Shown here: one piece after another, positions 1 through 15,768 of the stretch | Position numbering within the stretch: position 1 is the first letter of the stretch | Layout of the letters: each line of letters starts with the position of its first letter | Assembly (NCBI GenBank): GCA_048268245.1 | Contig: JBLWVX010000044.1 | Span: 1 to 17,290, forward strand | Direction: 5' to 3' | Length of the DNA: 17,290 nt | Origin: Arcobacteraceae bacterium | GTDB taxonomy: Bacteria > Campylobacterota > Campylobacteria > Campylobacterales > Arcobacteraceae | Made by a program: the position numbers and the translations under genes | Notes under the pieces: generated by a model | Database searches by the model: none | What the model was told of the DNA's origin: nothing | The model's input: the letters and a program-made list of their open reading frames with translations, nothing else

Positions 1-100
1 TGTAAAGAAATTTATACTACAGATGAAGTGAAAATATACTACATTTTAGAAAGATTTCTTATTTTTATTTTTAAAAATCCCTATTTTAAGGGCTTATAGC

Positions 101-442
101 TTATTCCATTTCAAGGGACATTAAATACATATCCTCACCATCAAGGACTTTTATATCCGTGCTATCGCACTTTGGACAGGAAAATTCATTTTTTTCAAGT
201 TCTGATTGAGTATTACAATTATGACACTCAATCATTATTTTTTGAATATTCATAATAAAGTCAGCATTATGACAAATGGTATGCTCTTTAAAAGTATCAA
301 AAGCTGTTTTCAATAAATCAGGTTCAACTCCTGATAAAACACCGATTTTTACTACTACTTTTGTAACTTCTTTTGCTTCATTTTGTTTTGCATGCTCTTC
401 GCATGACTCTAGTAAGGATTGAACTATACTATATTCGTGCAT
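101..442 (-). CDS. hypA: hydrogenase maturation nickel metallochaperone HypA
   Basis: N-terminal MHE Ni-binding motif, two CxxC zinc-finger motifs (CHNC, CPKC), 113 aa, last gene of the hyp cluster. Confidence 0.96.
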   Translation of the reverse strand: MHEYSIVQSLLESCEEHAKQNEAKEVTKVVVKIGVLSGVEPDLLKTAFDTFKEHTICHNADFIMNIQKIMIECHNCNTQSELEKNEFSCPKCDSTDIKVLDGEDMYLMSLEME

Positions 443-549
443 TAATATTTCCTTTAAAAGTGTCCCACTTTGAAAGGGACCTATTTCATTTTATGTCTTC
501 TTTTTTAGCACAAAAATAAATTCTGTTAAAAAGAAGCAAAAAACTAAAG

Positions 550-567
550 AGTGCATAGAAATGCACT
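550..567 (-). terminator. stem-loop between hypE and hypA (possible terminator or mRNA-stability hairpin)
   Basis: agtgcat-agaa-atgcact 7-bp inverted repeat just after the hypE stop, followed by a T-rich run on the minus strand. Confidence 0.4.
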
Positions 568-572
568 TAGTT

Positions 573-1568
573 CTAACAAATTCTAGGAAGTAGTTCACCT
601 GTTGGTAACTCTAAAAATCTTTTAGTTCCCCAAGGGCTGTTTAAAACTACTTTTTTATCATACTGTTTTGTAACATCTGCAATTATAGAAGCATTTGAGC
701 TATTTTCAAAAGCTTTTAAAACTTCTATTGCTTTTTGTGCATCTTCTTTTTTTACAGCCAATACAAAAGTTCCTTCATTTGCTAAACTCATAGCCTCAAA
801 GCCTAAAAGCTCACATAAACCTTTAACCTCATCTTTTACAGGAACTGATTCTTCATTTACTTCAATACACACATCAGATTGAACTGCCCATTCATTTAAA
901 ACAGCACTTAGTCCACCTCTTGTAGCATCCCTTAAAGCTGTTATGTTTATGTTTTCTTTTATTAAAGCTTCAACTTGTGGCCATAAAGAAGCACAATCAC
1001 TTTTCAAATCAGTATTCATATCCATACCTTCTCTTGAAGCAAAAATAGTAGCCCCATGAGCTCCAATATCACGACTTACAATAATTACATCATCAGTAGA
1101 TACTTTATTTGAACTAATACCCTCTTTTTGAACCTCACCTATTCCAGTTGTATTTATAAATATCTTATCAACACTACCTTTTGGCACTACCTTTGTATCA
1201 CCACTTACAACAGTAGCGCAATTTTTTTCAAGCTCTATTTTCATACTTTCAACAATAGTTTCTAACTTATCAATCTCAAAACCCTCTTCTATTATCACAG
1301 AACATGTAAGATATTTAGGTTTAGCACCCATCATTGCCAAGTCATTACAAGTTCCACAAATAGATAGTTTTCCGATATCAGCTCCATTGAAAAAAATAGG
1401 ACTTACAGTAAAAGAATCAGTTGTAAAAGCTAATCTTCCATTATCAATAATAGCAGCATCTTCACTTTTTGATAATATCTCATTTTCAAAAGCTTTATAA
1501 AATACTTTTGAGATTAACTCTTGATTTTCTGCTCCACCATTTCCATGGGCTAGTGTAACTTTTTTCAT
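573..1568 (-). CDS. hypE: hydrogenase maturation carbamoyl dehydratase HypE
   Basis: LAHGNGG start, TTDSFTVSP, GDTKVV and RDATRGG motifs, and the invariant C-terminal PRIC. Confidence 0.97.
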   Translation of the reverse strand: MKKVTLAHGNGGAENQELISKVFYKAFENEILSKSEDAAIIDNGRLAFTTDSFTVSPIFFNGADIGKLSICGTCNDLAMMGAKPKYLTCSVIIEEGFEIDKLETIVESMKIELEKNCATVVSGDTKVVPKGSVDKIFINTTGIGEVQKEGISSNKVSTDDVIIVSRDIGAHGATIFASREGMDMNTDLKSDCASLWPQVEALIKENINITALRDATRGGLSAVLNEWAVQSDVCIEVNEESVPVKDEVKGLCELLGFEAMSLANEGTFVLAVKKEDAQKAIEVLKAFENSSNASIIADVTKQYDKKVVLNSPWGTKRFLELPTGELLPRIC

Positions 1569-1584
1569 CTATTTCCTTTACTTT

Positions 1585-2712
1585 TTATTTTAAGAGATTA
1601 CCATATTTATAGTATGCAGCACATGCACCTTCACTACTTACCATACATGAACCTACTGGATTTGTTGGAGTACACACATTTCCAAATATTTTACAGTCAG
1701 TTGGTTTTGCCACACCTTTTAAAATCTCTGGACACTTACAAGCTTTATTCTCTTTTGGAGTCTCTTTTGGTAAGATTTTTTCATATATTATTTTTGCATT
1801 ATATTTATCAAATTCATCTTTTAAATCATATCCACTTAAAGGAACTTCTCCAACTCCTCTAAATTTAAATGTAACTTTCTTTAAATATGTATCAATCATC
1901 TCTTGAGCTTTTAGATTTCCTTCAAAAGAAACTAGTCTTTTATATTCAACCTCTAAATCACTTCTATTTTCAACAAACTGTTTTATAAGCATATGAATAG
2001 ACTGCATAACATCAACAGGTTCAAAACCACTTACTACAACTGGTTTATTATATTGTTTAGGAAATGGCTCATAGATTTTTGAACCACTTATTACAGATAC
2101 ATGAGAAGGTCCTAAAAAAGCATCTATTTTACAATCATCACTTTGAACTAGAACTTCCATAACTTCTGGAACAGTTACATGATTTACATGGAAATATAAA
2201 TTCTTTATATCTTTAGCTATTACTGTTTTTAAAAGTGAACATGTCATAGGAGTTGTTGTTTCAAAACCAATAGCAAAAAACACTACTATTTTAGATGGAT
2301 TTTCATCTGCAATTTTAATACAGTCCATAGGTGAATATACAAATCTTACATCAGCACCTTTACTTCTTGCATCTTGTAAACTTCCATTACTGCCAGGAAC
2401 TTTTATCATATCTCCCAATGTAACTAAAATAATATCTTCTTGCATAGCAAGTGCATATGCACTATCAATTTTATCTTTAGGCATTACACATACAGGACAT
2501 CCTGGTCCATGAATAAAGTTTATATTAGATGGAAGAAGTTGTGGAATTCCATACTTCATAATAGTATGAGTATGTCCTCCACAAACTTCCATAATATTTA
2601 TAGTTTTATCTAACTTACTTGCATCTTCTTCTATTAGCTTTGCATAAGCTTTCATAACCTCAGGGTTTCTAAATCCATCATATAAATCATTTAGTTCTAG
2701 TTCTTTTTCCAT
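1585..2712 (-). CDS. hypD: hydrogenase maturation Fe-S protein HypD
   Basis: MEVCGGHTH, GPGCPVC, GFETT, PSHVS and C-terminal CMVSSEGACAAYY motifs. Confidence 0.97.
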   Translation of the reverse strand: MEKELELNDLYDGFRNPEVMKAYAKLIEEDASKLDKTINIMEVCGGHTHTIMKYGIPQLLPSNINFIHGPGCPVCVMPKDKIDSAYALAMQEDIILVTLGDMIKVPGSNGSLQDARSKGADVRFVYSPMDCIKIADENPSKIVVFFAIGFETTTPMTCSLLKTVIAKDIKNLYFHVNHVTVPEVMEVLVQSDDCKIDAFLGPSHVSVISGSKIYEPFPKQYNKPVVVSGFEPVDVMQSIHMLIKQFVENRSDLEVEYKRLVSFEGNLKAQEMIDTYLKKVTFKFRGVGEVPLSGYDLKDEFDKYNAKIIYEKILPKETPKENKACKCPEILKGVAKPTDCKIFGNVCTPTNPVGSCMVSSEGACAAYYKYGNLLK

Positions 2713-2722
2713 AATTCTCTAC

Positions 2723-3004
2723 TTATCGATTAGGACAGTTTTCTGCCTCTTCTATTGCTGCAAGCCTGTCATTTTCTTCCATTTTATCTATGATTTCTTG
2801 ATAGACTTTTAATGACTCTAAAGCATCTTCCTCATCTATCTTATTCATAGCAAAACCTATATGTAATAATACATAATCCCCTATTTTTACAGGCTGATCT
2901 ATTAAATCTAAAGAAGCACTTCTTTCAACTCCCATAGTATCAACTACACAAGTGTTCATTTCTTCATCTATACTTTTAATCTTTGAAGGAATTGATAAAC
3001 ACAT
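2723..3004 (-). CDS. hypC: hydrogenase maturation chaperone HypC
   Basis: MCLSIP N-terminus and GDYVLLHIGFA motif; lies between hypB and hypD. Confidence 0.96.
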   Translation of the reverse strand: MCLSIPSKIKSIDEEMNTCVVDTMGVERSASLDLIDQPVKIGDYVLLHIGFAMNKIDEEDALESLKVYQEIIDKMEENDRLAAIEEAENCPNR

Positions 3005-3008
3005 AGCC

Positions 3009-3782
3009 TTATCTCATCTTTCTTTTAAATTCAATCCAATCAATAACTCTTTGAATTGATTCTTTGTCATTAATGTTTACTTCTAAAATATCAACATTTG
3101 GTTTTAGTTTTCTAGCCTCAGATTTCTCTTTTTCTACATCATATTGGAAGTGAGGAAGTAAATCTGTTTTAGTGATCAAAATCAAATCTGCACATCTGAA
3201 CATAACAGGATATTTAGCAATCTTATCTTCACCTTCAGGTACTGATACAAGTACAATATTTAAATGTGTTCCAACATCATAAGAAGCAGGACATACTAAG
3301 TTTCCAACATTTTCTACAAAACAAACATCTAAGTCATCTAAAGGCATATCATGTAAACCTTTATGAACCATAAATGCATCTAAGTGACAAGCTGAACCTG
3401 TTTGAATTTGAGTAGCCTTAATTCCTTTAGCTTTTAATCTATCTGCATCTCTGTTAGTTTCTAAATCACCTTCAACAACACCATATTTAAAGTTTGCTAA
3501 ATCAGACATATGCTCTAAAAGTGTAGTTTTACCACTTCCTGGACTTGACATTAGATTGATACCTAATACACCTTGTTTATCAAAATGGGCTCTGTTATGT
3601 GATGCCTCATGGTCATTTTTATCTAAAATCTTTTTTATTACTGATACTGTTTTACTATCATTTAACTGTGGATTATGATGTAAAGTTTCATGGGCAGCTT
3701 GATGACTTTGGCTATCTCTATGAGAGTGATCATGATCATGATGATGGTGGTCAGTTATTGAACATCCGCAATCTGTACACAT
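3009..3782 (-). CDS. hypB: hydrogenase nickel incorporation GTPase HypB
   Basis: N-terminal CxxCGC, His-rich tract, P-loop SSPGSGKT, CHLDA, ENVGNLVCP and TKTD motifs. Confidence 0.97.
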   Translation of the reverse strand: MCTDCGCSITDHHHHDHDHSHRDSQSHQAAHETLHHNPQLNDSKTVSVIKKILDKNDHEASHNRAHFDKQGVLGINLMSSPGSGKTTLLEHMSDLANFKYGVVEGDLETNRDADRLKAKGIKATQIQTGSACHLDAFMVHKGLHDMPLDDLDVCFVENVGNLVCPASYDVGTHLNIVLVSVPEGEDKIAKYPVMFRCADLILITKTDLLPHFQYDVEKEKSEARKLKPNVDILEVNINDKESIQRVIDWIEFKRKMR

Positions 3783-3925
3783 ATTTGTTCCTTTTATAAT
3801 CTATTTTATTTAATATGAATACTTATTCATTTTTATGTAGTTTAACTCAACTATTATAAATCTATTCTAATTTTATTTATTTCTTATGTATTTTTAGGAA
3901 AAATTAAGATATTTTTGACATATAA

Positions 3926-4254
3926 TTAAATTCTCAAGAACAATCTTTAGCAAATAAAACTACTGAAACTATGACAGAGATTGACAAAGAAGTTAATGCT
4001 ATTAATAAAGCAAATACTGTAAATGTAGCTGTTCAAACTGATAACATTGCTAAACTTGTAGTTGAAAACGCAAACTCAAAAGAGTTTGTAGGTAAAGATG
4101 AAGTTCAGGCAAAAGAATTAACTTCAAGCGATACTACAACAAGTAAAAAGTATGAAGTAGAAACTTCACCAAAACAAAATACAAATAATTCTAATTAACA
4201 ACTAAAGAGGTTAAAGACTCTTAAAATGATGAAGATGAATGGACAAGCTTTTAA
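3926..4254 (+). pseudogene. remnant of a methyl-accepting chemotaxis protein (C-terminal fragment)
   Basis: Frame reads LANKTTETMTEIDKEVNAINKA then NTVNVAVQTDNIAKLVVENANSKEFVGK, resembling the two flanks of an MCP signalling domain without the conserved tip. An out-of-frame NDEDEWTSF* (4225-4254) resembles the NWETF-type tether and follows an in-frame TAA. No sensor or TM region. Confidence 0.7.
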
Positions 4255-4261
4255 GCTTGTC
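4242..4261. terminator. inverted repeat at the end of the MCP remnant
   Basis: gacaagctt-tt-aagcttgtc perfect 9-bp inverted repeat overlapping the relic stop codon. Confidence 0.5.
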
Positions 4262-4287
4262 TTATAAACTATAACTTTGATAAAAAG

Positions 4288-4296
4288 TGTTAAAAT
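4288..4296 (+). promoter_or_regulatory. extended -10 promoter (TGnTAAAAT) for a probable leaderless transcript
   Basis: TGTTAAAAT ends 6 nt before the ATG at 4303; no Shine-Dalgarno sequence in between. Confidence 0.55.
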
Positions 4297-4302
4297 GTTT
4301 TT

Positions 4303-4938
4303 ATGAATTGTAAAAACTGCAACAATAACACTTTTTATCATATTGAAAAAAATTACATTAAATGCAAAAAATGCAATAAAAAATACTCACTAAAAAAACT
4401 ACATACTGATACTCTTATAATAAAAAACTTCTGTGATAATATAAATGCCAATGAATGTAGTAAACAATTAGACCTTAATTATCGTACTGTTAAAAATAGA
4501 TATGATAAGTTGAGATTTAAAATTGCTAAGTTTTTAGAAGAAGAGTATAACAAAAGTATAAAAGACTATAGTGATTATGAAGAGTATTACTACTTCAACA
4601 CAAAACAAAAGCAAAGCAAAAATAAATCCTTATATGAAGCTATAAATATTATGGGCTTTTATTTTGATGAAAAAGTTTATACCCTTTTAATGCCCAAACT
4701 ACCTAAAAGAAATAGTGAAGATACTGAACATTTTAAAGAGTATCTAAACTGGTATAAAATTCACTCTCAAGAATCATATAAAACTAGACTAAAAGAGTTT
4801 TGGCTTTTCTTAGAAGATAGCCTTAGAAAATACAAAGGCTTTAATCAAGACTATTTTTTTTACTATTTAAAAGAGTGTGAGTTTAAATTTAACTATACAA
4901 AAGAAGAGCAAATTAAAATCCTAAATAAGATATTTTAA
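4303..4938 (+). CDS. IS1595/ISXO2 transposase-like protein (Zn ribbon + HTH, catalytic core apparently eroded)
   Basis: N-terminal CKNC...CKKC zinc ribbon, HTH-like NANECSKQLDLNYRTVKNRY, C-terminal YLKECEFKFN resembling the IS1595 family terminal motif. Only 211 aa; no terminal inverted repeats seen. Confidence 0.65.
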   Translation: MNCKNCNNNTFYHIEKNYIKCKKCNKKYSLKKLHTDTLIIKNFCDNINANECSKQLDLNYRTVKNRYDKLRFKIAKFLEEEYNKSIKDYSDYEEYYYFNTKQKQSKNKSLYEAINIMGFYFDEKVYTLLMPKLPKRNSEDTEHFKEYLNWYKIHSQESYKTRLKEFWLFLEDSLRKYKGFNQDYFFYYLKECEFKFNYTKEEQIKILNKIF

Positions 4939-5334
4939 TTACTCCTTATCAAAACTATCTACAATAATTGCACCCATTGAAGCAGGCATTGTAATAACTA
5001 TCAATCTTTTTATAGCAATAATTGGCTCGGTTAGTAAAGGTAGTTTATCAATAGATATTAAAACTAAGGCTACAACTAAGGCTGATATTATATATGCAAT
5101 TATAATTCTTAATATAAAAACAAAAATCCTATGAACAACCTGCCCTTGAAAAACACTCTCATATGCAAAAAGTGCTAAAAAACTTACTGATAATATAAAT
5201 ACTAATGTAAGATTAGAAAAAGGAAGACTTTCACTAATTCTCCAAGCTTCTTCAGAAAATGAAATTGGTACAGCAAAAGCAAAAGAGCCTATTGCAATCT
5301 GCCCAATATCTTTCATATCAATATTTAAATTCAT
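4939..5334 (-). CDS. DUF2391-like integral membrane protein
   Basis: Four hydrophobic segments; GSFAFAVPISFSEEAW and PASMGAIIVD motifs recalled from this family. Confidence 0.7.
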   Translation of the reverse strand: MNLNIDMKDIGQIAIGSFAFAVPISFSEEAWRISESLPFSNLTLVFILSVSFLALFAYESVFQGQVVHRIFVFILRIIIAYIISALVVALVLISIDKLPLLTEPIIAIKRLIVITMPASMGAIIVDSFDKE

Positions 5335-5335
5335 T

Positions 5336-6160
5336 TTAAACCTTCACTTGGTTTTTACCATTACTTTTTGCTTCATAAAGAAGTTCATCTGCACTTTTAA
5401 TGATTTGTTCTTCATCTTTTTTAGAGTCCTCATTACTACTTACACCTATACTTACTGTAATTTTCATATCATCTGCATACTCTTTTTGAATATTTACTCT
5501 TATTTTATCAGCAATCTTAAAAGCATCATGTTTTTTTGTATCTGGAAAAATTACACTTAACTCCTCGCCTCCATACCTAAAAGCAATATCCATACTTCTA
5601 ATACTTTGTTTGATAATCTTTGAAATTTTTGTAAGAACCTCATCACCTTTTTGATGTCCATAAGTATCATTTACATCTTTAAAATCATCAATATCAATCA
5701 TTATAAAAGAAAAAGCACTATTTTTTCTTCTCGCTTTTTCAAAAACTTTTTTTATAAAAATATTTAAAACCTCTCTTTTATATAAAGAGGTTAACTCATC
5801 AATTGTTGCAATTTTTGAGATTGATTCAAACTCATCCTCTAACATAACTTTCATATCTTCTGTAATATTTTTTATGTTTTCTATATAATCTACACTTGCT
5901 ACATTTATCCCAACAGGTCTATTTAGAACCTTTTCTAAACTTTTCATATGCGTAACTAATCTATTCCAAGTATCTTTGGCTTCTTTTTCATCTAACTTCT
6001 TATGTATTAAAACAGATATGATTTTTGAATAAGGATTATTTATTCTTTTTGCAAACTCTTCAATACTATTAGCATTATAAGCTAGTTCATTAATCTTTTT
6101 AGTATCTAGATTTTCTAACTTTTCATTTTTTATAATTGTTTCAATCTGTTCACTACTCAT
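5336..6160 (-). CDS. GGDEF-domain diguanylate cyclase
   Basis: DELTSL, DIDDFKDVNDTYGHQKGD, RxxD I-site (RSMD), RYGGEEL active site, ADELLYEAK; soluble N-terminal domain. Confidence 0.93.
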   Translation of the reverse strand: MSSEQIETIIKNEKLENLDTKKINELAYNANSIEEFAKRINNPYSKIISVLIHKKLDEKEAKDTWNRLVTHMKSLEKVLNRPVGINVASVDYIENIKNITEDMKVMLEDEFESISKIATIDELTSLYKREVLNIFIKKVFEKARRKNSAFSFIMIDIDDFKDVNDTYGHQKGDEVLTKISKIIKQSIRSMDIAFRYGGEELSVIFPDTKKHDAFKIADKIRVNIQKEYADDMKITVSIGVSSNEDSKKDEEQIIKSADELLYEAKSNGKNQVKV

Positions 6161-6723: not shown

Positions 6724-7770
6724 TTATATACTGTGTCGATTTTGTGCATTATCTGATATATCAAATAACACTCTTTTTTCTTTTCTTCTTGGAACATACT
6801 TATAATACTTTTGCAAAGTTATAGATGGATTTTTGTGTCTTAACATAAAACTTACCCATTCCAAACGCTCACCCATAGAAAGCTTCAAACTTGCAAAAGT
6901 ATGTCTAGTTTGATGAAAACCTCTATATTCAATATTTAAAGATTTTAAAATCTTTTTATAATAATATGTTAAATCACAAGTACTATTAAATCTATTTCCA
7001 CGAGCTGTATAAAAAACATATTCTCTTAATCCAGTTCGCTGTAATTGATTTTTTAAAAAAGGCAGTAACTCCTCAGGTAAATCTATAATAGCTTTAGAAC
7101 TAAAAGTCTTAGGTAAATCTTCAATACCATTCATTATAGTTTTATTAACATCTATTTCCATTTTTTTGAAATCAATATCAGTCCATTTTAAAGCTATGAT
7201 TTCCCCTGCTCTCATACCAGTAAGTAAAGCTACTGCAATTAAATTTTTAATATGTGAATCATAATTTAATAAAAGTTTTAACTCATCATAATTAAAAGGA
7301 TTTATCTCATATTTAGATTGGAATTTAGGATTAGATATTTCATTAAATGGATTACTTTTAATTACTCTATTTAACAATGATTCTTCAAATACATCTTTTA
7401 AAATTGCCTTAGCTATTCTAAGTGTACCAGTACAAGGTAAAAACTTATAAAAATCTTTTAGAAATAAAGGTGTAACTTCTACAACTGTAATATTTTTAAA
7501 GTATGGTTTTATTCTAGTTTTTAGAATAGAATTATAACTTCTTAAAGTACTATGTTTTAAAGTCTTACTTTTTTCTTCCATTACATTTTCACAATGTTCT
7601 ACTACACTAATTAAAGTATTATTGTTTATTCCAAATTTGTTAAAGAACTCATCATTTTTATAGTATGACTTAACTAATTTTCTATTATTTGTTGTATCTT
7701 CTAGTTTAGTTGATATTCTACGACCATTAATACGAACATATAATTTACCATTTCGATTATAAAATGTCAT
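6724..7770 (-). CDS. tyrosine recombinase / phage integrase
   Basis: Catalytic set: R (TGMRAGE), K (LPKT), HxxR (HQTRH), H (MLRH, where LGH is more usual), Y (KYYKY). N-terminal arm-binding-like and SAM-like regions. Confidence 0.93.
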   Translation of the reverse strand: MTFYNRNGKLYVRINGRRISTKLEDTTNNRKLVKSYYKNDEFFNKFGINNNTLISVVEHCENVMEEKSKTLKHSTLRSYNSILKTRIKPYFKNITVVEVTPLFLKDFYKFLPCTGTLRIAKAILKDVFEESLLNRVIKSNPFNEISNPKFQSKYEINPFNYDELKLLLNYDSHIKNLIAVALLTGMRAGEIIALKWTDIDFKKMEIDVNKTIMNGIEDLPKTFSSKAIIDLPEELLPFLKNQLQRTGLREYVFYTARGNRFNSTCDLTYYYKKILKSLNIEYRGFHQTRHTFASLKLSMGERLEWVSFMLRHKNPSITLQKYYKYVPRRKEKRVLFDISDNAQNRHSI

Positions 7771-8054
7771 GCGATTTCCCTTTTAAATTGTTCTATCGCA
7801 CTTTCTATAAATACTATTTTATGCTTACCTTGCTTAATTTCTTTTCTATAGTGAACATTTAGTTTAAATCTACCATCATTTATATAATTATAAATAGTTG
7901 GTGGTGTCTTATCTAAATATTCAGCTACATTTTTTACTTTTGTTAAATCTCTTTTTTTTCTAAGTTCTTGGTTTAACATTTGAACTTCTTTTTTTAACTC
8001 TATTACTTCATCTAATAAAGATGGTATTAAAGATAATGTTTCTTCTATTGTCAT
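7767..8054 (-). CDS. excisionase-like HTH DNA-binding protein
   Basis: VKNVAEYLDKTPPTIYNYINDGRF winged-HTH pattern after a short coiled coil; ATGA overlap with the integrase. Confidence 0.75.
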   Translation of the reverse strand: MTIEETLSLIPSLLDEVIELKKEVQMLNQELRKKRDLTKVKNVAEYLDKTPPTIYNYINDGRFKLNVHYRKEIKQGKHKIVFIESAIEQFKREIA

Positions 8055-9241
8055 TTTTTATCTCTGTATTTATCTTTTAAAACAATCTTATTATGATTAG
8101 TTCCATACTTAGGAATTGAATTTAAAAAATTATGTGCTTTTTCTGCACCATTAGACACATATGTAAACTCTGTAGTTTGAAGCTCTTTAATAATTTGTTT
8201 AGCTTTTGAGTAAGATACTGTGTCACAGTCCATATCTGTATATTCTATATATATACTATCACTTATTTCAATATGTCTTATATCTCTTTTTGTTTCTTCT
8301 TTAACTGGTTGATCCAGGTTCTTTGATTCTTCATATTGTTCTTTAAATGATTTAGGTTTTTCATGAGTTAAATTTTTTAAATCTTCTAATTCTTTTTTTA
8401 ATTGTTCATTTTCTTCTTTTAACTTTTTATTTTCATTTTGAAGTTTTACTATCTCATCAATATCTTCTATAGGAACTATTGAACCAGTACCAATCTGAAT
8501 AAATGTTTTATTTAACATATCATCTTTTATTATCTTAACTTCTTTATCATTTTTGTTAATTTCTTCTTTATGCTCATCAGGTTTTGTATTAAAGTTTGAA
8601 ACTTTTTCTTCTTTTTTTCCCGCGGGAAAATTTTGTTTATAATCTTTTATTTCATCTCTTGTAATTTCTTCATTTACATATTTATCATAGATTTCACATT
8701 GTAAATCTGTATCTTTAATTCTTCCTATTTCTTCAAGAACTGAAAGAGGAACAGTTAATCTATCAGCTTCTAAAAGTGTTACGATAGATGGGTCTAATCT
8801 TAAAGAAGAAAAACATTTAGAAATAAAAGTTTGTGATTCGCCTATAGCTCTTGCTAAATGTTCTTTTTTCTTATATCTTCCAGAGTTCCACATTTCGCCT
8901 ATTTTTTTCGCATACTCAAATGGTGTTAAATCTTGTCTTTGTCTTGCTTTTACAAGAGAAATTTCATCTATTTGAGCTTCATCAAAATCAAATATTTGTA
9001 TTTTAATTGTTGTATGATTTAATTTATTACAAGCTTTAAATCTTCTCTCACCATCTACAATCATATAACCCTTATGAAATTTAACAACTGCAACAGGTTC
9101 TAATAATCCATGTATCTTAATAGAACTTGCAAGCTCATCTAAATTATTAAAAGTTTTTCTTGGTTGATTTTCATTTGGATATACTGTTTTGATATCCACC
9201 TCTAAAAAGTCTTGTAATTGTGTATCCATTAATTTATTCAT
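8051..9241 (-). CDS. ParB/Spo0J-family protein (CTPase domain + HTH) with long C-terminal extension
   Basis: PNENQPRKTF, LASSIKIHGLLEPV and IVDGERRFKA (GxRR motif); HTH KEHLARAIGESQTFISK; C-terminal coiled coil LQNENKKLKEENEQLKKELEDLK. Confidence 0.9.
   Translation of the reverse strand: MNKLMDTQLQDFLEVDIKTVYPNENQPRKTFNNLDELASSIKIHGLLEPVAVVKFHKGYMIVDGERRFKACNKLNHTTIKIQIFDFDEAQIDEISLVKARQRQDLTPFEYAKKIGEMWNSGRYKKKEHLARAIGESQTFISKCFSSLRLDPSIVTLLEADRLTVPLSVLEEIGRIKDTDLQCEIYDKYVNEEITRDEIKDYKQNFPAGKKEEKVSNFNTKPDEHKEEINKNDKEVKIIKDDMLNKTFIQIGTGSIVPIEDIDEIVKLQNENKKLKEENEQLKKELEDLKNLTHEKPKSFKEQYEESKNLDQPVKEETKRDIRHIEISDSIYIEYTDMDCDTVSYSKAKQIIKELQTTEFTYVSNGAEKAHNFLNSIPKYGTNHNKIVLKDKYRDKK
8615..8630. 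promoter_or_regulatory. perfect 16-bp palindrome, candidate parS-type ParB loading site
   Basis: TTTTCCCGCGGGAAAA, GC-rich core in very AT-rich DNA, inside the ParB gene (codons F205-K209); similar in form to parS (TGTTTCACGTGAAACA) and the Noc site (TATTTCCCGGGAAATA). Confidence 0.65.
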
Positions 9242-9243
9242 AA

Positions 9244-9477
9244 TTAACCCCTTTTATTAAATTTATTAACATACTGCTCAAATCTAGTTTTTAGATGTTC
9301 TTTTGCTTCATCTATAGATTTAAAACTTTGAAATCTTGTTTCTTTAAATGTGTAATCAAAAAATACAAATGTTGCATTTTGAGAAAGTCTTATTTTTCTT
9401 ATTTGAAAAACTATTTTGTCTTTTAAAATATAGTAGATTGTAGTTTCATCATTTTTTAGTGTTAGTACATTTAGCAT
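9244..9477 (-). CDS. hypothetical phage protein (77 aa)
   Basis: Fills the gap between rep and the ParB gene with 1-2 nt spacing; its 3' end carries the AAGGGG RBS of the ParB gene. Confidence 0.7.
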   Translation of the reverse strand: MLNVLTLKNDETTIYYILKDKIVFQIRKIRLSQNATFVFFDYTFKETRFQSFKSIDEAKEHLKTRFEQYVNKFNKRG

Positions 9478-9478
9478 A

Positions 9479-10786
9479 TTAAAATCCTAATTGTGAAGCT
9501 GTTTTAACTACATTCATTGTTTTAAACTCACCAGTATCTATGTCTATATATTCTTCCTCTACTGTATATAATTCATCACTAGTTAAAGGCTGTATTTCTA
9601 CAGTAGTTAAGAGATCTCTTTTAATCATTTCATTTTGAGTAACTAGATAGTGCTTATTATCAATTACATTAGTATCTAAGCTAGTTAGTTCTCTATAATA
9701 TCTTTGAAGTTGGTAATCATTTAATTTTGATGGAATTACTGGAACTAACATGAATCTATTTTGGCTATCATTGAAAGTATATTTTTCAAACTCACTTACA
9801 TAAACTTGTAGAGCTGTTTTATAATCTTCTTTTTTATATGCTAGTTTGAAAGTATCATTTTTCTTAATTCTACTATAGATAATTGAGTCAGTATTTTTAG
9901 CCCATGATATAACTTCATCTACTGTATCATTCTCAATATCGTACTTCATGTACATATGCATATTACCATCAAATAAAGTTTGAATTTGATTCTTTTCCCA
10001 CATTTTAGAAGCTTCTAAAAGTGAAGTATTAGAGGGTAGTGAGTGTCTTACTTTTCTATAAACACCTAGTGTAATTGAAAGACTTCTTGATGTTAAAAAT
10101 CTTCTAACTTTGTTTTTAATATACCAGTATGAAGCGTATTGTAAAGAGTTATCATTCTCATTTTTGAAAGTTTTTGTGATGTATTTCATGATATATGCAA
10201 CAGCACCACCTGCTGACTTATACCATGTGTATCTAAAGTCTAAAGACTTTTTATTGTTTCCCCATCTTACTTTGTTTGTAAAGTATTCATAAAACTTATT
10301 TTTTACTTCTAAGATATAATCTTTTGGTAAGAATAGCATAGCGTGCATATGTGGAACACCGCTTTTATGAGGTTCATATACTCTAAAATATATTAATCCC
10401 TTTCCATATTCTTTTTTCATTTTTCTAAATACATTTAATCCAGTAAATCTATTCCAAATCTGTGTCATATCTTTTGCAGTTTGATTAGGCTTAATTAGTA
10501 AGTTACCTTTAGAGTCCGTTTTATGATACTTTGCAGGAGCTGTAAAAGTTAAAAATACTGGTTTTAAATTCATTTCTTTTGCTAAGTCAAAAATAGAGTT
10601 AATTCTATTATTCATTTCTGCAAAATATCTTTTAGGATTTATTACAGCAGAGTGTATAAAGTCTAAAGCATCTTTATTTTCATTTTCAAACTCAAAGTTT
10701 GAAAGATTGTTTTTTATCCAGTCTTTTTGAAACTGTATCTTTTCATCTATATATTTGATATCATATTTGCTTAATCCGTATTTCAT
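9479..10786 (-). CDS. rolling-circle replication initiator (HUH endonuclease, two-tyrosine phiX174 A / P2 A type)
   Basis: Motif 1 FLTFTAP, motif 2 EPHKSGVPHMHAM, motif 3 AVAYIMKYITK; AAGGGG RBS upstream. Confidence 0.9.
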   Translation of the reverse strand: MKYGLSKYDIKYIDEKIQFQKDWIKNNLSNFEFENENKDALDFIHSAVINPKRYFAEMNNRINSIFDLAKEMNLKPVFLTFTAPAKYHKTDSKGNLLIKPNQTAKDMTQIWNRFTGLNVFRKMKKEYGKGLIYFRVYEPHKSGVPHMHAMLFLPKDYILEVKNKFYEYFTNKVRWGNNKKSLDFRYTWYKSAGGAVAYIMKYITKTFKNENDNSLQYASYWYIKNKVRRFLTSRSLSITLGVYRKVRHSLPSNTSLLEASKMWEKNQIQTLFDGNMHMYMKYDIENDTVDEVISWAKNTDSIIYSRIKKNDTFKLAYKKEDYKTALQVYVSEFEKYTFNDSQNRFMLVPVIPSKLNDYQLQRYYRELTSLDTNVIDNKHYLVTQNEMIKRDLLTTVEIQPLTSDELYTVEEEYIDIDTGEFKTMNVVKTASQLGF

Positions 10787-10835
10787 TTATTACCCCTTTA
10801 AAATCTATTACATAACTATTATAAAAGTAATCAAG

Positions 10836-10894
10836 GGGAGCGACTCAAACAGACAAGCTGTTTGCTTTCGCTCCCTCTGGGGCGCGGTGCGCCC
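10836..10894. other. GC-rich double hairpin, candidate double-strand replication origin
   Basis: gggagcga(10836-43)/tcgctccc(10868-75) encloses caaacag(10846-52)/ctgtttg(10858-64); then gggcgc-ggt-gcgccc (10880-94); lies directly upstream of rep. Confidence 0.6.
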
Positions 10895-10912
10895 ACTTTT
10901 ATCCCCTATTAA

Positions 10913-11092
10913 CTATTTGAATAAGAAAGGTGCTTTAATAACAAGTTCACCCATTCTTAATCTAATTTTTTTCATTCTTTTTAAATCTTCTTTTGATTTA
11001 TTAGATTTACTTTCCAATTGTTTGTATTCTTTTAATAAAGTCTCTTTTTCAATAAATAAAATAAAAAGATTTGTTAATGTATTTGTTTTCAT
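10913..11092 (-). CDS. hypothetical basic 59-aa protein (not in ORF track)
   Basis: Hand translation MKTNTLTNLFILFIEKETLLKEYKQLESKSNKSKEDLKRMKKIRLRMGELVIKAPFLFK*; AAGGA RBS; ATGA overlap with the upstream ORF. Confidence 0.7.
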   Translation of the reverse strand: MKTNTLTNLFILFIEKETLLKEYKQLESKSNKSKEDLKRMKKIRLRMGELVIKAPFLFK

Positions 11093-11421
11093 AAATAAAG
11101 TCCTTTATAATCTTCAAATTTGAAGATGAACTTATTAAAGTAGTTTATTCTAGAATGCAAATCTTGATTAAATTCTTGTGTAAAGACATAAAAATTATCA
11201 TTTATTTGTTCACTCATTCTTTGCATATTTAAATACTCATTTTTAATATCTTCAAAGAACTCTTCATCTGTTCTTGGGTCATTTTGTGCTTCTTTTACAA
11301 TTTGTCTTACTGCTACAGTTGATAATAGTAATCCTGCAAAAGGTAATAAAGGTGTTGGAATATCAACTGAACTAATCAGATTATGAGCTGAACCTATATA
11401 GTTTTTAATTTTTTTTATCAT
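11089..11421 (-). CDS. hypothetical 110-aa phage protein with one hydrophobic segment
   Basis: AAAGGA RBS, co-oriented directly after the secretin gene; hydrophobic LLPFAGLLLSTVAV. Confidence 0.7.
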   Translation of the reverse strand: MIKKIKNYIGSAHNLISSVDIPTPLLPFAGLLLSTVAVRQIVKEAQNDPRTDEEFFEDIKNEYLNMQRMSEQINDNFYVFTQEFNQDLHSRINYFNKFIFKFEDYKGLYL

Positions 11422-11433
11422 GTTATATCCTTT

Positions 11434-12669
11434 CTAATCACAAAAGTTTAAATACTTACAAGTATCAAACTCTCTTAAAATTAACGATTCATTCTTATTA
11501 TTGAAATTATCTAATACATTAAAATCTATAATCTCAATAAGCACAGTTGTTGTAGTTGTTTTATCATCTAGTTTTTTAGATTTAAAAAAATTTCCTATTA
11601 CTGGTATTGATGAAAGTAAAGGTACATTTTTATAAGTTTCAATTTTTGAATTGTTATTGATACCTGATAATAAAAAGTATCTTTTATCTTTATCTAGTGT
11701 AATATCTTGTTTGATTGTTTTCTTTGTAGTAATTGGAAGATTGTTATCATTACTTAGTAATTGTGAGTACACAAAATCTAAATCTAAATTTACTAAATCA
11801 TTTAGTATTTTTGGTTTTATATTTAGTCTTAATCCAACATCTTTATATTCAAATGAATTTACTTCTTTAGTTTTAGTATCTTCTATTTGATTACTAGTTG
11901 TTAAGTATGGTATGTTTTGAGAACTATCTAAGATAAAATCTTTATTATGTTCTAGATTTATTATTGTAGTTGTAAGATTAGTAGTAAAAGAGTTTGTATC
12001 TAAAAACTTTATTACACTATTTACATTATCATAGTCAGCTTTATTACTGATATTTATTGCAGAACCTAAAAATATATCAAATACAGCTTTTTGTCCTTTA
12101 TTTAAATTTAAATCTATTAGACTTTCATGCTCTTTTAAATCATTTAAATTTGTTTCAAAAATTGAAAGTTTTATTTTCATCTTATTTGGAAGAACATCTA
12201 AAAGCTCTATATTTCTTTTTATTTGTGTATATTTTTCATAAGTGCTATCTATTGCTAACTTATTTGCTTGTTTTAAATATGTATAATCAACTTTATAAAG
12301 TTTACAAATAGAGTCAATATCTTTATAGTTTAAAAAGTTCAAATGGATATATCGAACCTTAGTTTTTTTCTCTTTTTCTTCATGCTCTACAGTATCTATT
12401 TTATTTATATAGTAAATACCATTTTTAATACTAATATCATAATCATTAGCTTTTAGAACTGTAGTTAAAAATTTATAATTGTTTTGAGTTGGTTTATAAA
12501 ATACTGTAATATCTTTCATCATCTTATCATTGATTACAAAAGGCTTATCAATATTTGATAGTACATCAACTGTAAAAAGTTTTAAATTTGTTTCTAAGTA
12601 GTTAAAATCATTTGCTTGTAAAGCTGTCAGTAACGCTAGTGAACAAATCGTTTTCTTCATTGTTTTCAT
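11434..12669 (-). CDS. secretin (pIV/GspD-like) phage extrusion channel
   Basis: Signal peptide, YKDVGLRLNIKPKI and VPLLSSIPVIGNFFKS secretin signatures. Start moved from TTG 12687 to ATG 12669, which follows an AAGGGG RBS. Confidence 0.9.
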   Translation of the reverse strand: MKTMKKTICSLALLTALQANDFNYLETNLKLFTVDVLSNIDKPFVINDKMMKDITVFYKPTQNNYKFLTTVLKANDYDISIKNGIYYINKIDTVEHEEKEKKTKVRYIHLNFLNYKDIDSICKLYKVDYTYLKQANKLAIDSTYEKYTQIKRNIELLDVLPNKMKIKLSIFETNLNDLKEHESLIDLNLNKGQKAVFDIFLGSAINISNKADYDNVNSVIKFLDTNSFTTNLTTTIINLEHNKDFILDSSQNIPYLTTSNQIEDTKTKEVNSFEYKDVGLRLNIKPKILNDLVNLDLDFVYSQLLSNDNNLPITTKKTIKQDITLDKDKRYFLLSGINNNSKIETYKNVPLLSSIPVIGNFFKSKKLDDKTTTTTVLIEIIDFNVLDNFNNKNESLILREFDTCKYLNFCD

Positions 12670-13678
12670 TTTTACCCCTTTCTTCAAATAAATTAAATTT
12701 ATCTATTGTTTTTATTGCATACTTGTTATTTACTACTTTTAAAAACTTTGTTTCATATTCATTATTTAAGATATAAAATAAGTAAGATTTTTCATATACA
12801 TTCCCATTTATAAAGCAAAGGTTTTTATTACAAATCATTTCAAAGTATTGTGAGTCTTTAAAATCTTTAGTTGGTGTTGTTGCTGCTCTTTTAGGAATGA
12901 TTGAATTAGATTGATTTTTGTTGTTATCATTTACAACATTTTCAGGTTCAGAAGAAAAAGATTTAATAAAAAAATATCCTCCAATAATAAGAAATGCAAA
13001 GATACCAAGTGATATAAGTAAATAGTGAAGTACTAGTGATTTTTGAGTATTGTTATCACCTGAATGATAAAGTTTAAAAGACTCTTTGATAATTGGTATC
13101 TTTTTAGTATCAGCTTGTTGAGTTTTAAACATTTGATAGCCAATAAATTTATTATAAATCATACTAGTATTAAAAAGTTTTCTTGATGCTGGTCTTGCCT
13201 TATAGAAGAACTCAGTAAATACTTTATAGTTTTTGTGAACTAAAGGAATATCTTGAGTAATTAAAATAATATCTTGATAAAAGTGTCTATGATAGGATAA
13301 CCACCATTCTAAAGTATCATCATGTTTTTTTAAGTAATCTTGGCACTCATCAATTACAATAAGTGTATTTACAAATTTAGTATCTGTAATTTTATCTACT
13401 TCTTCTATTAATTCATTATCTGTAAAACCTCTTTTTTTACACATATGTAAGTGTTTAAGAATTTTTTTGAATTCATCAAAATCAAATTGATAAGTATTTT
13501 CAAATTTATCAAATTTAAATTCATTTAAATTAGTTAAGCAAGCTTTATATTGAGTTTTTGAAATTGCATATTTTTTATATTTTGAATATTTTCTATTTCT
13601 AAGAAAATTAACAATAATATAAAAAACACCATAATAACTTTTTCCACTACCTGGTATACCAGTAACAAACTGTATCAT
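12608..13678 (-). CDS. Zot-like / pI morphogenesis ATPase
   Basis: Walker A GIPGSGKS at the N-terminus, Walker B LIVIDECQ, HRH and ILITQ motifs, single TM helix then periplasmic tail; overlaps the secretin gene. Confidence 0.93.
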   Translation of the reverse strand: MIQFVTGIPGSGKSYYGVFYIIVNFLRNRKYSKYKKYAISKTQYKACLTNLNEFKFDKFENTYQFDFDEFKKILKHLHMCKKRGFTDNELIEEVDKITDTKFVNTLIVIDECQDYLKKHDDTLEWWLSYHRHFYQDIILITQDIPLVHKNYKVFTEFFYKARPASRKLFNTSMIYNKFIGYQMFKTQQADTKKIPIIKESFKLYHSGDNNTQKSLVLHYLLISLGIFAFLIIGGYFFIKSFSSEPENVVNDNNKNQSNSIIPKRAATTPTKDFKDSQYFEMICNKNLCFINGNVYEKSYLFYILNNEYETKFLKVVNNKYAIKTIDKFNLFEERGKNENNEENDLFTSVTDSFTSK

Positions 13679-14097: not shown

Positions 14098-15768
14098 TTA
14101 AAATAATCTATTTGCTAAAGATATAACTTGAACTGAAATTTGCCATAAAGCAATCATTAAAATAATTTGAAAAAACAAAACAACAATTGGTTTTAATGTA
14201 GACATTGGTGTAACAAAATCAAAAGAAACTTTACTACCAAATATATCAAGAGATAAACACTCTTCTAAATTTGGATTTTTAGAATATGAAATAGGTGTAA
14301 ACTCTAAACCACCTTCAAAAATTTGTTTATAATCATTTACTTGTGTTTCAAGTTGATTAAATGAAGATTCCATATCACTAAATAATGTTGTAAAATCTGT
14401 ATTTATCTTGTCAAACTTAGTATTTAAATCATTTAATTTTTCTTCATCAGCAGTATTTAAAGAGTTCTTTATATCTTCTAAAGTTTGATTTGTAGTATCT
14501 AATTTACTATCTATACTTTGAGTATTGTTATTTATAGATGTAGCAGTACTATTTAAGCTATCCAAAGAGCTTTCAAGATTACTATTATCATTAATTGGTT
14601 GTTCTACTTCTTGGGGTGGTATTGGGTCAGGATTAGTAGTATCACATAAACTAGTATCATCATCATAAATATCAGCAATTCCATCTAAATCACAATCTTC
14701 ATGACAAATAGGTGAACCAGTTAAATCTGTACCAGTTTCAATAGTACCTATAGGACATTCAAAACCTTTTACACAACCATTGTCACCACTTGTATAATTA
14801 ACTTCATCACAACCTCTATCACATGTAAAAGTAGTATCAGTACATTTTAAACTAGGAGCGCCGTCACCACAATCACTAACATAATAATCTAATTCACATG
14901 GTCTATCAGTTGTACCAGTTCCAGTACCGTCATCAGGATTTGAAGTATCACCACCTCCACCAGTACTAGTACCAGTTCCACCTTGTGCAGGAGTTCTTGT
15001 ATCTTGATTTATAGTGCCATCTGGATAATATGATACATAAGTACCATCACTATAGTCAGTTCTTGAACTTCCATCTAAATTAGTAGTAGTAACAGAACCG
15101 TCAGCATTAACTACTATACTATCAACAATAGTTGGGTCAATAGGCATAGTATTAGTATCAGGGTTTCCATCACTACTATAATCTATATGACAAATGGGAT
15201 TACCAAATAAATCTGTACCAGTTTGCACAGTTCCTGCAGGACAAGTAATTTGTGGTTGTGAAACTGGTAAACAAAATTGTTCACCCTCTACTGTTCCAAG
15301 TTCAAAACCTTCACCACATAAAGGAATACCATCAGGGTCAAAACCAGTTGTCCCCTCGCCTAAATCGGTACATACACCATATCTATAATCTTGATTAGAA
15401 GAACAAGAACATGTATATCTTCCATCTAATCCAACTGTACATGTTTCATTTGTATCAGGATTTACATAACTAGGTGGTTCAGGCTCAACATGTCCATCAT
15501 CGATAGGATGACAAGATGTGTAAACTGTAGAATAAGAAAGTCTAAATTTCCAATAACCATCAGCAGAACTATAAGAACATGAACCGACAGCATATTTTGA
15601 ATTTGAAGTATATGTTTCTCTATTAGAATTACAATGCGATTCACTTGTTCCAGACTTATAGACAACAGTAGTATAATATCTATCAACTTTAAGTTCTTCA
15701 CCCTCAATACAAGTAGCAAAAGAAAATGTATTTATAAATAATATTAAAAATATTGATTTTTTTAGCAT
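14098..15768 (-). CDS. pIII-like adsorption protein
   Basis: Signal peptide, Cys-rich domains, Gly/Thr/Asp linker, coiled-coil region, C-terminal TM anchor; sits before pVI and pI. Confidence 0.85.
   Translation of the reverse strand: MLKKSIFLILFINTFSFATCIEGEELKVDRYYTTVVYKSGTSESHCNSNRETYTSNSKYAVGSCSYSSADGYWKFRLSYSTVYTSCHPIDDGHVEPEPPSYVNPDTNETCTVGLDGRYTCSCSSNQDYRYGVCTDLGEGTTGFDPDGIPLCGEGFELGTVEGEQFCLPVSQPQITCPAGTVQTGTDLFGNPICHIDYSSDGNPDTNTMPIDPTIVDSIVVNADGSVTTTNLDGSSRTDYSDGTYVSYYPDGTINQDTRTPAQGGTGTSTGGGGDTSNPDDGTGTGTTDRPCELDYYVSDCGDGAPSLKCTDTTFTCDRGCDEVNYTSGDNGCVKGFECPIGTIETGTDLTGSPICHEDCDLDGIADIYDDDTSLCDTTNPDPIPPQEVEQPINDNSNLESSLDSLNSTATSINNNTQSIDSKLDTTNQTLEDIKNSLNTADEEKLNDLNTKFDKINTDFTTLFSDMESSFNQLETQVNDYKQIFEGGLEFTPISYSKNPNLEECLSLDIFGSKVSFDFVTPMSTLKPIVVLFFQIILMIALWQISVQVISLANRLF
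14695..15243 (-). repeat. duplicated 21-aa Cys module within pIII (copies at 15181-15243 and 14695-14757)
   Basis: CPAGTVQTGTDLFGNPICHID vs CPIGTIETGTDLTGSPICHED, 15/21 identical; share the 17-nt string taaatctgtaccagttt. Confidence 0.85.

Follow-up and report, generated by a model that had tools for sequence, protein, structure and literature searches.

The closest described counterparts of the DNA site reported here are the palindromic sites bound by ParB-family proteins, namely the chromosomal parS and the Noc-binding site (NBS), Noc being a ParB-family CTPase that serves nucleoid occlusion in Bacillota. Such a site can lie within a coding region, as in Bacillus subtilis, where a parS is located inside spo0J (a statement found neither in PMC7333895 nor by phrase search). 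PMC7383237 reports that noc is confined to the Firmicutes, that parS and NBS differ at two positions, the second being position 6, and that there are four specificity residues (Q-K-K-R in Noc), with Q158 and K169 of Noc among the specificity positions. KorB is a ParB-family transcriptional regulator that is loaded at palindromic operators (PMC11790492), and SopB of the prophage-plasmid N15 is a phage-borne ParB homologue whose centromere consists of the inverted repeats IR1-4 (PMC7205306). In this study, we analysed a 17,290-base contig (JBLWVX010000044.1 of assembly GCA_048268245.1, from an Arcobacteraceae bacterium), hereafter the window or C44, in which an integrated filamentous prophage carries a parB gene with a perfect 16-base-pair (bp) palindrome, TTTTCCCGCGGGAAAA, in its coding sequence. 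The comparative results lead us to regard this palindrome, with good confidence, as the cognate DNA-binding site of the ParB whose gene contains it. By sequence, the protein (P0001) is an ordinary member of the ParB family, and the palindrome very likely represents a bacterial centromere motif with a new spacing of its arms.

The first-pass annotation of the window had described a perfect palindrome written in unusual codons, located just past the helix-turn-helix (HTH) domain and present once in the window, and all of these observations were reproduced. The palindrome cannot be extended, since 8614 and 8631 are both T. It comprises the third base of codon 204 together with the whole of codons 205-209 of parB (AAT TTT CCC GCG GGA AAA), encoding N204-F-P-A-G-K209 four residues past the Pfam HTH_ParB match. 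In 700 long open reading frames (ORFs) of the genome, CCC makes up 2.8% of the proline codons and GCG 2.0% of the alanine codons (1/12 and 2/13 within parB), and the probability of the codon string of the site, given FPAGK and the genome codon usage, was 1.5e-4. The site also stands out by its base composition, as runs of at least eight G/C have only 23 start positions in the 2,681,560-base genome. Among 171 perfect 16-bp palindromes, ten have eight G/C and one more has ten; two of those ten are the window site and its copy on contig C31.

No second copy of TTTTCCCGCGGGAAAA was found in the window with up to three mismatches allowed (shuffle expectation 0.01; a match in 2 of 200 shuffles). The whole-genome search proposed in the first-pass annotation returned one further exact copy, at C31 9727-9742, within the ParB paralogue of a second prophage, and no others at up to two mismatches. 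A search of the genome for the strict motif (TTTC-SS-NN-SS-GAAA, with complementary arms) gave two matches, one in each ParB paralogue. In contigs of three sequencing runs that span the site and are 94-98% identical, none of the differences listed fell within 8615-8630, which matches the chance expectation; 14 sequencing runs contain 5-16% of the sampled words.

Relatives of P0001 were collected from 184 genomes of the family, from scans of GTDB species genomes and IMG/VR, and from 401 genomes of the order. The resulting clade of Campylobacterota phages comprises 40 loci (314,616 bases, not deduplicated; seven elements are present twice), whose ParBs are 37-53% identical over the N-terminal 200 residues. 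In the phylogenetic tree, the clade was split from four chromosomal ParBs by a branch of 1.22 with a Shimodaira–Hasegawa-like approximate likelihood ratio test (SH-aLRT) value of 100, and P0001 was placed on a long branch (0.78) nested within the clade, beside L113 (support 86). The first-pass annotation had proposed to check whether homologues retain a palindrome at this position through synonymous sites, and the outcome was positive and went beyond what that check required. TTTCCC-NN-GGGAAA was present in the post-HTH linker of many of these distantly related parB genes, with the in-gene sites lying 624-1539 nucleotides into the ORFs, and it was read in three different frames. In the frame TTT CCC it encodes NFPAGK in the window, DFPVGN in L115 and NFPTGN in L006 and L117. 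In the frame xTT TCC C it encodes ISRGKK in L039, ISLGKK in L007, FSPGKK in L113, VSRGKK in L124, ISPGKE in L004 and ISPAKK in L036, and in the frame xxT TTC CC it encodes ENFPRE in L118 and ENFAGE in L009. The same arms read in three frames can be explained by a conserved DNA site and not by a conserved peptide.

The association between the site and the clade was then expressed as counts. The strict motif was found 41 times in the clade loci, spread over 29 of the 40, and a single time in 129 loci around other ParB genes (1,236,744 bases), while a widened motif, TTTC-N-C-NN-G-N'-GAAA, gave 43 sites in 31 of the 40 and none in the 129. TTTCCCNNGGGAAA occurred 47 times in 28 of the 184 family genomes, against 15 occurrences of a reversed control. 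The sites cluster around the clade parB: genome G012 has five in a span of 36.6 kilobases (kb), and G039 and G153 have four each, in spans of 21.4 and 18.3 kb, respectively. The reverse test, a search of IMG/VR for the exact 16-mer, returned 29 stretches of 26 records; eight of these records encode a clade ParB (E-value at most 2.2e-46), and six of the eight had been missed by the protein scan. Among the phage genes of the window, parB had homologues in all 40 clade loci, the integrase gene in 3 and the excisionase-like gene (xis) in 2, and orf77, rep, the Zot, pIV and pIII genes and three small ORFs in 0 of 40. As parB alone is universal, ParB is the sole candidate binder common to all of the elements.

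Alignment of 46 distinct site contexts highlighted constant arms (TTTC-C-C), A/T flanks and a variable central dinucleotide (AC 14, GA 11, GC 9, CA 7, AA 2, CG 1, CC 1 and AT 1). On this comparison, the window 16-mer is one instance of a 6-2-6 site class. The first-pass annotation had viewed the site as the core of the Noc site with a central GC insertion, belonging to a one-gene ParB-parS cassette with its own specificity. The arms do equal that core and are set apart by a 2-bp spacer, but the central GC varies freely and is not a matter of specificity. In the same way, the site is exclusive to this group of ParBs, but it belongs to the clade as a whole and not to this gene alone; the one-gene unit did not stand either, as the unit that moved contains two genes (see below).

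Most sites have C as the fifth arm base. Others have G, in at least three separate lineages (L008/L010, L009, and L036 with L126), or A, in L012/L037. In the latter pair, the in-parB site TTTCACGAGTGAAA (L012 2006, L037 6506) combines the arms of the chromosomal parS type, TTTCAC/GTGAAA, with the 2-bp spacer, and the in-gene site TTTCCCCAGTGAAA of L122 is a hybrid with one arm of each kind. The L012/L037 and L122 sites may represent intermediates of a change in specificity. In the HTH region, Phe at the P0001 position 144 was found in 17 of 18 CCC-type rows (L005 counted as CCC-type) and in 4 of the remaining 10. At position 138, Thr was present in 4 of 5 CGC-type rows (L008, L010, L009 and L036, from three lineages) and in four CCC-type rows (L001, L003, L120 and L125).

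Most clade parB genes adjoin a parA. The G153 element encodes an integrase, CI- and CII-like regulators, ParA, ParB, terminase, portal, baseplate, sheath and tape measure proteins and is, by its gene content, a tailed temperate prophage; one of its four sites lies in parB, and the other three are found in the small terminase gene, a baseplate gene and an ORF of 117 residues. In L120-L125, the ORF that immediately precedes parA belongs to the integrase family and has a site at its 3' end. L115 and L117 show the same parB-xis-int order as the window, with integrases 42-44% and excisionase-like proteins 39-41% identical, and the filamentous phage probably took up such a parB-xis-int module without parA. 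No close relative of P0001 was found among 50,697 records of the GenBank phage collection, where the best matches reached 31-34% identity (nine records). The sole plasmid match, NZ_CP104380.1 of A. butzleri, encodes a ParB that is 37% identical, carries no such site and probably has a different specificity. A metagenome scan with P0001 gave 169 pattern matches and 0 relatives.

Membership of P0001 in the ParB/Spo0J family is indicated by its Pfam matches to ParB_N (E-value 1.6e-16, 60.6 bits, cut-off 26.3) and HTH_ParB (E-value 2.7e-5, 24.7 bits, cut-off 22.6) and by matches to ParB-like PHROG families and to ParB and Noc chains of the PDB. The motifs for cytidine triphosphate (CTP) are kept in Q26-P27-R28, G64-E65-R66-R67 and Q101-R102. 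In box III, the Glu-Asn of Glu-Asn-x-Gln-Arg is replaced by K98-A99 (window 8948-8953); in the alignment, these two residues stand opposite the Glu-Asn of the Noc chains and of the ParB from H. pylori. The box reads VKARQR in P0001 and IENIQR in all relatives outside the P0001-P0004 subclade, so that, among the sequences compared, the change is specific to the branch that lacks ParA. In the M. xanthus ParB, the substitutions E126A and N127A leave nucleotide binding in place while ring closure fails (preprint 10.1101/2021.05.05.442810). As QPR and GERR are intact, nucleotide binding by P0001 may persist, and clamp closure, by analogy with the M. xanthus mutants, may be lost.

ParA-linked relatives carry an N-terminal Lys/Arg segment of about ten residues (e.g., AGKTKTSG), presumed by analogy to contact ParA, and this segment is missing in P0001-P0006. 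A PHROGs scan of 20 ORFs and Pfam scans of the window ORFs detected no ParA, and neither C44 nor C31 has a ParA-like ORF with a Walker-A motif, the five of the genome lying elsewhere. Of the components of a ParABS system, the window thus shows neither an adjacent ParA nor the N-terminal ParA-stimulating peptide. The closest relatives of the ParA-less subclade, P0004-P0006, are 42-68% identical and keep (F/L)PAG(K/N)K in an otherwise variable linker; if the arms are kept in their genes, this peptide would be encoded by TTTCCCGCGGGAA(A/T).

The features of the parB region and of the prophage are listed in Table 1. The genome (2.68 Mb, 28% G+C) belongs to the family that holds Aliarcobacter, and positions 100-6160 of the window contain the host genes hypA, a hypE-like gene, hypD, hypC and hypB, followed by genes for a membrane protein and a GGDEF protein. 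From 6724 rightwards, all of the genes lie on the minus strand and form an integrated inovirus-like prophage, as identified by a rolling-circle Rep, a Zot/pI ATPase and a pIV secretin together with the absence of capsid and tail genes. A major coat protein was not identified in scans of the window ORFs. Judging from their coordinates, the abutting or overlapping genes rep-orf77-parB-xis-int look like one transcription unit. A promoter and terminator scan of 7600-11300 gave 18 promoter-like sites, with 23.8 expected. No family was found for orf77 in the protein atlas (best score 0.85), the prophage search gave no convincing attachment-site direct repeats, and no tRNA was found in the window.

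Table 1. Features of the parB region and of the inovirus-like prophage in the window (positions are those of the 17,290-base contig unless codons or residues are given).
Feature	Position	Strand	Remarks
Palindrome TTTTCCCGCGGGAAAA	8615..8630	.	Proposed ParB-binding (parS-like) site
Core TTTCCC-GC-GGGAAA	8616-8629		Two 6-bp arms and a 2-bp spacer
parB (P0001), 396 aa	8051..9241	-	ParB_N 12-98, HTH_ParB 103-200
parB linker after HTH	codons 204-209	-	Carries the palindrome
parB C-terminal part	coiled-coil-like stretch about 260-300, then C-terminal domain	-	Predicted; C-terminal domain without known family
Tyrosine integrase (int), 348 aa	6724..7770	-	Left prophage end
Excisionase-like HTH_17 gene (xis), 95 aa	7767..8054	-	Start overlaps parB stop
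orf77, 77 aa	9244..9477	-	No known family; directly upstream of parB
Rolling-circle replication initiator (Rep), 435 aa	9479..10786	-	Phage_GPA / G2P-like, phrog_91
pIV-type secretin	11434..12687	-	Inovirus assembly gene; secretin / phrog_1012
Zot / pI-type assembly ATPase	12608..13678	-	Inovirus hallmark
pIII-like ORF, 556 aa	14098..15768	-	Inovirus-like gene

Two further observations concern the prophage. A G+C-rich hairpin, GGGCGCGGTGCGCCC, is located at 10880-10894 in the 300-bp gap upstream of rep, contains 2 of the 23 genomic start positions of runs of at least eight G/C and is a candidate phage replication origin or terminator. The pIII-like gene, whose product is rich in Cys, Gly, Thr and Asp, contains an internal 93-nucleotide repeat (14665-14757 and 15151-15243, 73% identical).

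The second prophage, on C31, is also inovirus-like and encodes a ParB paralogue of 486 residues (L001 890-2350). The two prophages differ strongly, with identities of 29% for Rep, 28% for Zot and 34% for Xis, whereas the cassette shared between C44 and C31 8869-10604 is 93.5% identical in orf77 and 91-97% in ParB. Near-identity of orf77 and ParB against this background indicates a recent transfer of orf77-parB between unrelated filamentous phages. The paralogue also has an extra insert of about 90 residues, which starts about 60 bp past the site; PF28159 is the precomputed Pfam hit in P0003. The same kind of replacement is seen in a metagenome contig (run X2), which has 369 letters instead of window 8465-8560.

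We propose that a ParB dimer would place one helix-turn-helix domain on each 6-bp arm (TTTCCC and GGGAAA) and leave the two central bases as an uncontacted spacer; this 6-2-6 contact geometry is deduced from the pattern of conservation. The site would represent a specificity class common to the ParB clade of Campylobacterota phages. Tailed temperate prophages of the clade would use parB beside parA, with 2-5 dispersed sites mostly within coding regions, and the filamentous prophage of the window would have acquired parB with its embedded site and the collinear xis-int module, without parA. The window ParB probably acts as a static regulator and not as a ParA-driven partition clamp, a role favoured because there is no ParA, no N-terminal Lys/Arg segment and a K98-A99 in box III. 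Bound in the middle of rep-orf77-parB-xis-int, some 610 bp downstream of the parB start codon and some 560 bp upstream of xis, ParB would form a roadblock that limits read-through into the 3' portion of its gene and on into xis and int, allowing autoregulation and a damping of xis and int. A more far-reaching version, which we put forward as speculative and on balance rather unlikely, is that the captured partition protein has become a ParA-free, non-sliding ParB on a single intragenic site that gates rep-orf77-parB-xis-int and could also disturb the maintenance or expression of rival tailed phages by binding the sites that they share, with orf77-parB traded as a regulatory or interference module.

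Other explanations of the palindrome were weighed against the same data. A hairpin in the single-stranded phage genome or in mRNA, serving as packaging signal, complementary-strand origin or terminator, would suit the single-stranded DNA stage of an inovirus, and the two halves of the palindrome can pair in a stem of 6 bp that is closed by a 4-nucleotide loop. The fold is weak, however (centroid -3.4 kcal/mol, z = -1.4, with 18 of 200 shuffles at least as good), the arms are constant and do not covary, many centres are not self-complementary and tailed prophages with double-stranded DNA have this site too, which leaves this explanation a next to negligible probability. It is scarcely more credible that the peptide FPAGKK is conserved for a role in the protein and that the DNA symmetry is accidental. 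The retention of (F/L)PAG(K/N)K in P0004-P0006 would agree with such a role, but the three frames give unrelated peptides (FPAGK, ISRGK, NFPRE), the arms also occur outside parB, the rarest Pro and Ala codons are used in spite of the choice that the peptide allows, and the middle residue of the first frame varies between A, T and V, precisely the pattern expected if the central dinucleotide is free and the G after it is fixed. Tyrosine-recombinase cores have spacers of 6-8 bp, which the 6-2-6 layout does not fit, and this bears on the possibility that the site is bound not by ParB but by another protein of the module, for instance the integrase or the excisionase-like HTH_17 protein, or by a host factor. 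The xis and int homologues directly downstream of parB in L115 and L117, and the site at the 3' end of an integrase-family ORF in L120-L125, would be in keeping with such a binder; against it, xis and int are rare in the clade loci while parB is universal and sites occur in 31 of 40, and four to five dispersed recombination sites per phage genome would be destructive. We regard it as highly improbable. Chance occurrence is excluded by the clade-wide association. A functionless relic of parB capture is harder to exclude, as the two local copies are recent duplicates and the window has a single site and no ParA; the persistence of FPAG(K/N)K down to 42% identity in the ParA-less subclade argues against it, and chance and relic together are considered improbable.

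The main alternative to the static regulator concerns the function of the site. Inoviruses replicate as episomes, and the site could serve as the centromere of an episomal replicative form, maintained through the host chromosomal ParA (Soj) or through pairing with integrated copies. This is consistent with the partition-type layout of the relatives, which adjoin parA and have dispersed sites, with the episomal replication of inoviruses in general and with the Soj-like gene that the host carries beside its own parB on contig C20. On the other side, there is no parA on C44 or C31, the N-terminal Lys/Arg segment is absent, box III has Lys-Ala at the positions where the M. xanthus alanine mutants fail in ring closure, and the element has an integrase and hence no dependence on partition. 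Maintenance is, therefore, a serious but unlikely alternative.

Several observations weigh against the ParB-site explanation itself or narrow its reach. A clade ParB is missing from 18 of the 26 IMG/VR records that contain the 16-mer, many of these 18 being fragments of 8-63% completeness, and 9 of the 40 clade loci have no site in the examined DNA, the sites of one of them (L005, equivalent to G039) lying outside the examined stretch. In the element-borne dnaG (L041 and L120-L125; e.g., L121 9588), the site, TTTCCCGAGGGAAA or TTTCCCAAGGGAAA, is located at the catalytic-domain motif FP(E/K)GKD and coincides with a conserved primase peptide (FPEGKD), so that part of its conservation may be driven by the protein. 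No HTH residue separates the arm classes, among rows that are related and in which CGC arms arose at least three times. P0004-P0006 are known as proteins only. The C31 copy sits in a stretch that is 95% identical to the window, which makes the two local copies uninformative on selection. The support for ParB as the binder is comparative throughout, and the regulatory role is read from gene order and motif loss.

With ParB as the probable binder, the system can provide insight into several questions. ParB proteins and their sites are a model for CTP-driven DNA clamps and for the evolution of DNA-binding specificity, and familiar arms with a 2-bp central spacer raise the question of how dimer geometry adapts. 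Arms that naturally carry C, G or A at the position distinguishing parS from NBS arose several times in one clade and form a series for specificity studies. The site is also a clear case of a predicted protein-binding site kept within coding DNA in all three frames, and a ParA-less ParB with an altered CTP-switch box in a filamentous phage may reveal a role of ParB beyond partition. Orthogonal ParB-site pairs serve as DNA-labelling tools (PMC11109969 and PMC11798528). The core sequence was not found in the literature searched, and no link between ParB/parS and filamentous phages was recognised there from titles and the openings of abstracts; PMC10432266 concerns parB loci of linear plasmid-like phages.

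Comparison with the known systems places the site closest to NBS in sequence. The arms TTTCCC/GGGAAA equal the NBS core as quoted in the first-pass annotation, P0001 aligns to Noc chains (7ng0, E-value 2e-18), and the variable arm base of the clade (C/G/A) is the second position that distinguishes parS from NBS. In the HMMER alignment, Q137 of P0001 matches Noc Q158, C143 aligns with K164 and R148 with K169, while the position of R186 lies beside a two-residue gap, at P165; the region equivalent to R186, which reads the variable base in Noc, is two residues shorter in P0001 and lacks the Arg. The NBS arms abut, whereas all 46 clade contexts, retrieved with a spaced pattern that does not cover abutting arms, have a 2-bp spacer. 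The window site belongs to a phage and not to a chromosome, and no membrane-targeting role is implied. P0001 is, on these sequence features, not a Noc, given the spaced arms, three of four differing specificity positions and the phage setting.

With the chromosomal ParB-parS systems, the window shares ParB_N and HTH_ParB, QPR, GERR and a palindromic 16-bp site, and the best solved match to P0001 is a ParB chain (4umk, E-value 1.2e-22). The L012/L037 arms are those of two canonical parS-like palindromes on the host chromosome, AGTTTCACGTGAAACT and TGTTTCACATGAAACA, located 6.8 kb apart at C8 29189 and 35983, which have no spacer between their arms and differ from the phage site. The differences are the 2-bp spacer, the deep split in the tree, the lack of ParA and of the N-terminal ParA-contact segment, the Lys-Ala in box III and a different C-terminal half. 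The window system is not a complete ParABS. N15 SopB shares with the clade the presence of several sites per genome, as seen in the four to five dispersed sites of the tailed prophages in G012, G039 and G153. N15, however, is a linear plasmid prophage that does not integrate and that has SopA, and its site sequences are unrelated, whereas the window contains an integrating inovirus with a single site. P0001 also matches chains of KorB (8qa8, E-value 2e-8), which acts at the operator OB of the IncP-1 plasmid RK2. KorB has a working CTP clamp, the partners IncC and KorA and 12 operators; the window has one site, within a coding region, an altered box III and no KorA-like partner identified, with orf77 belonging to no family. 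A static regulatory role of P0001 would, by analogy, represent a KorB-like use of a ParB protein.

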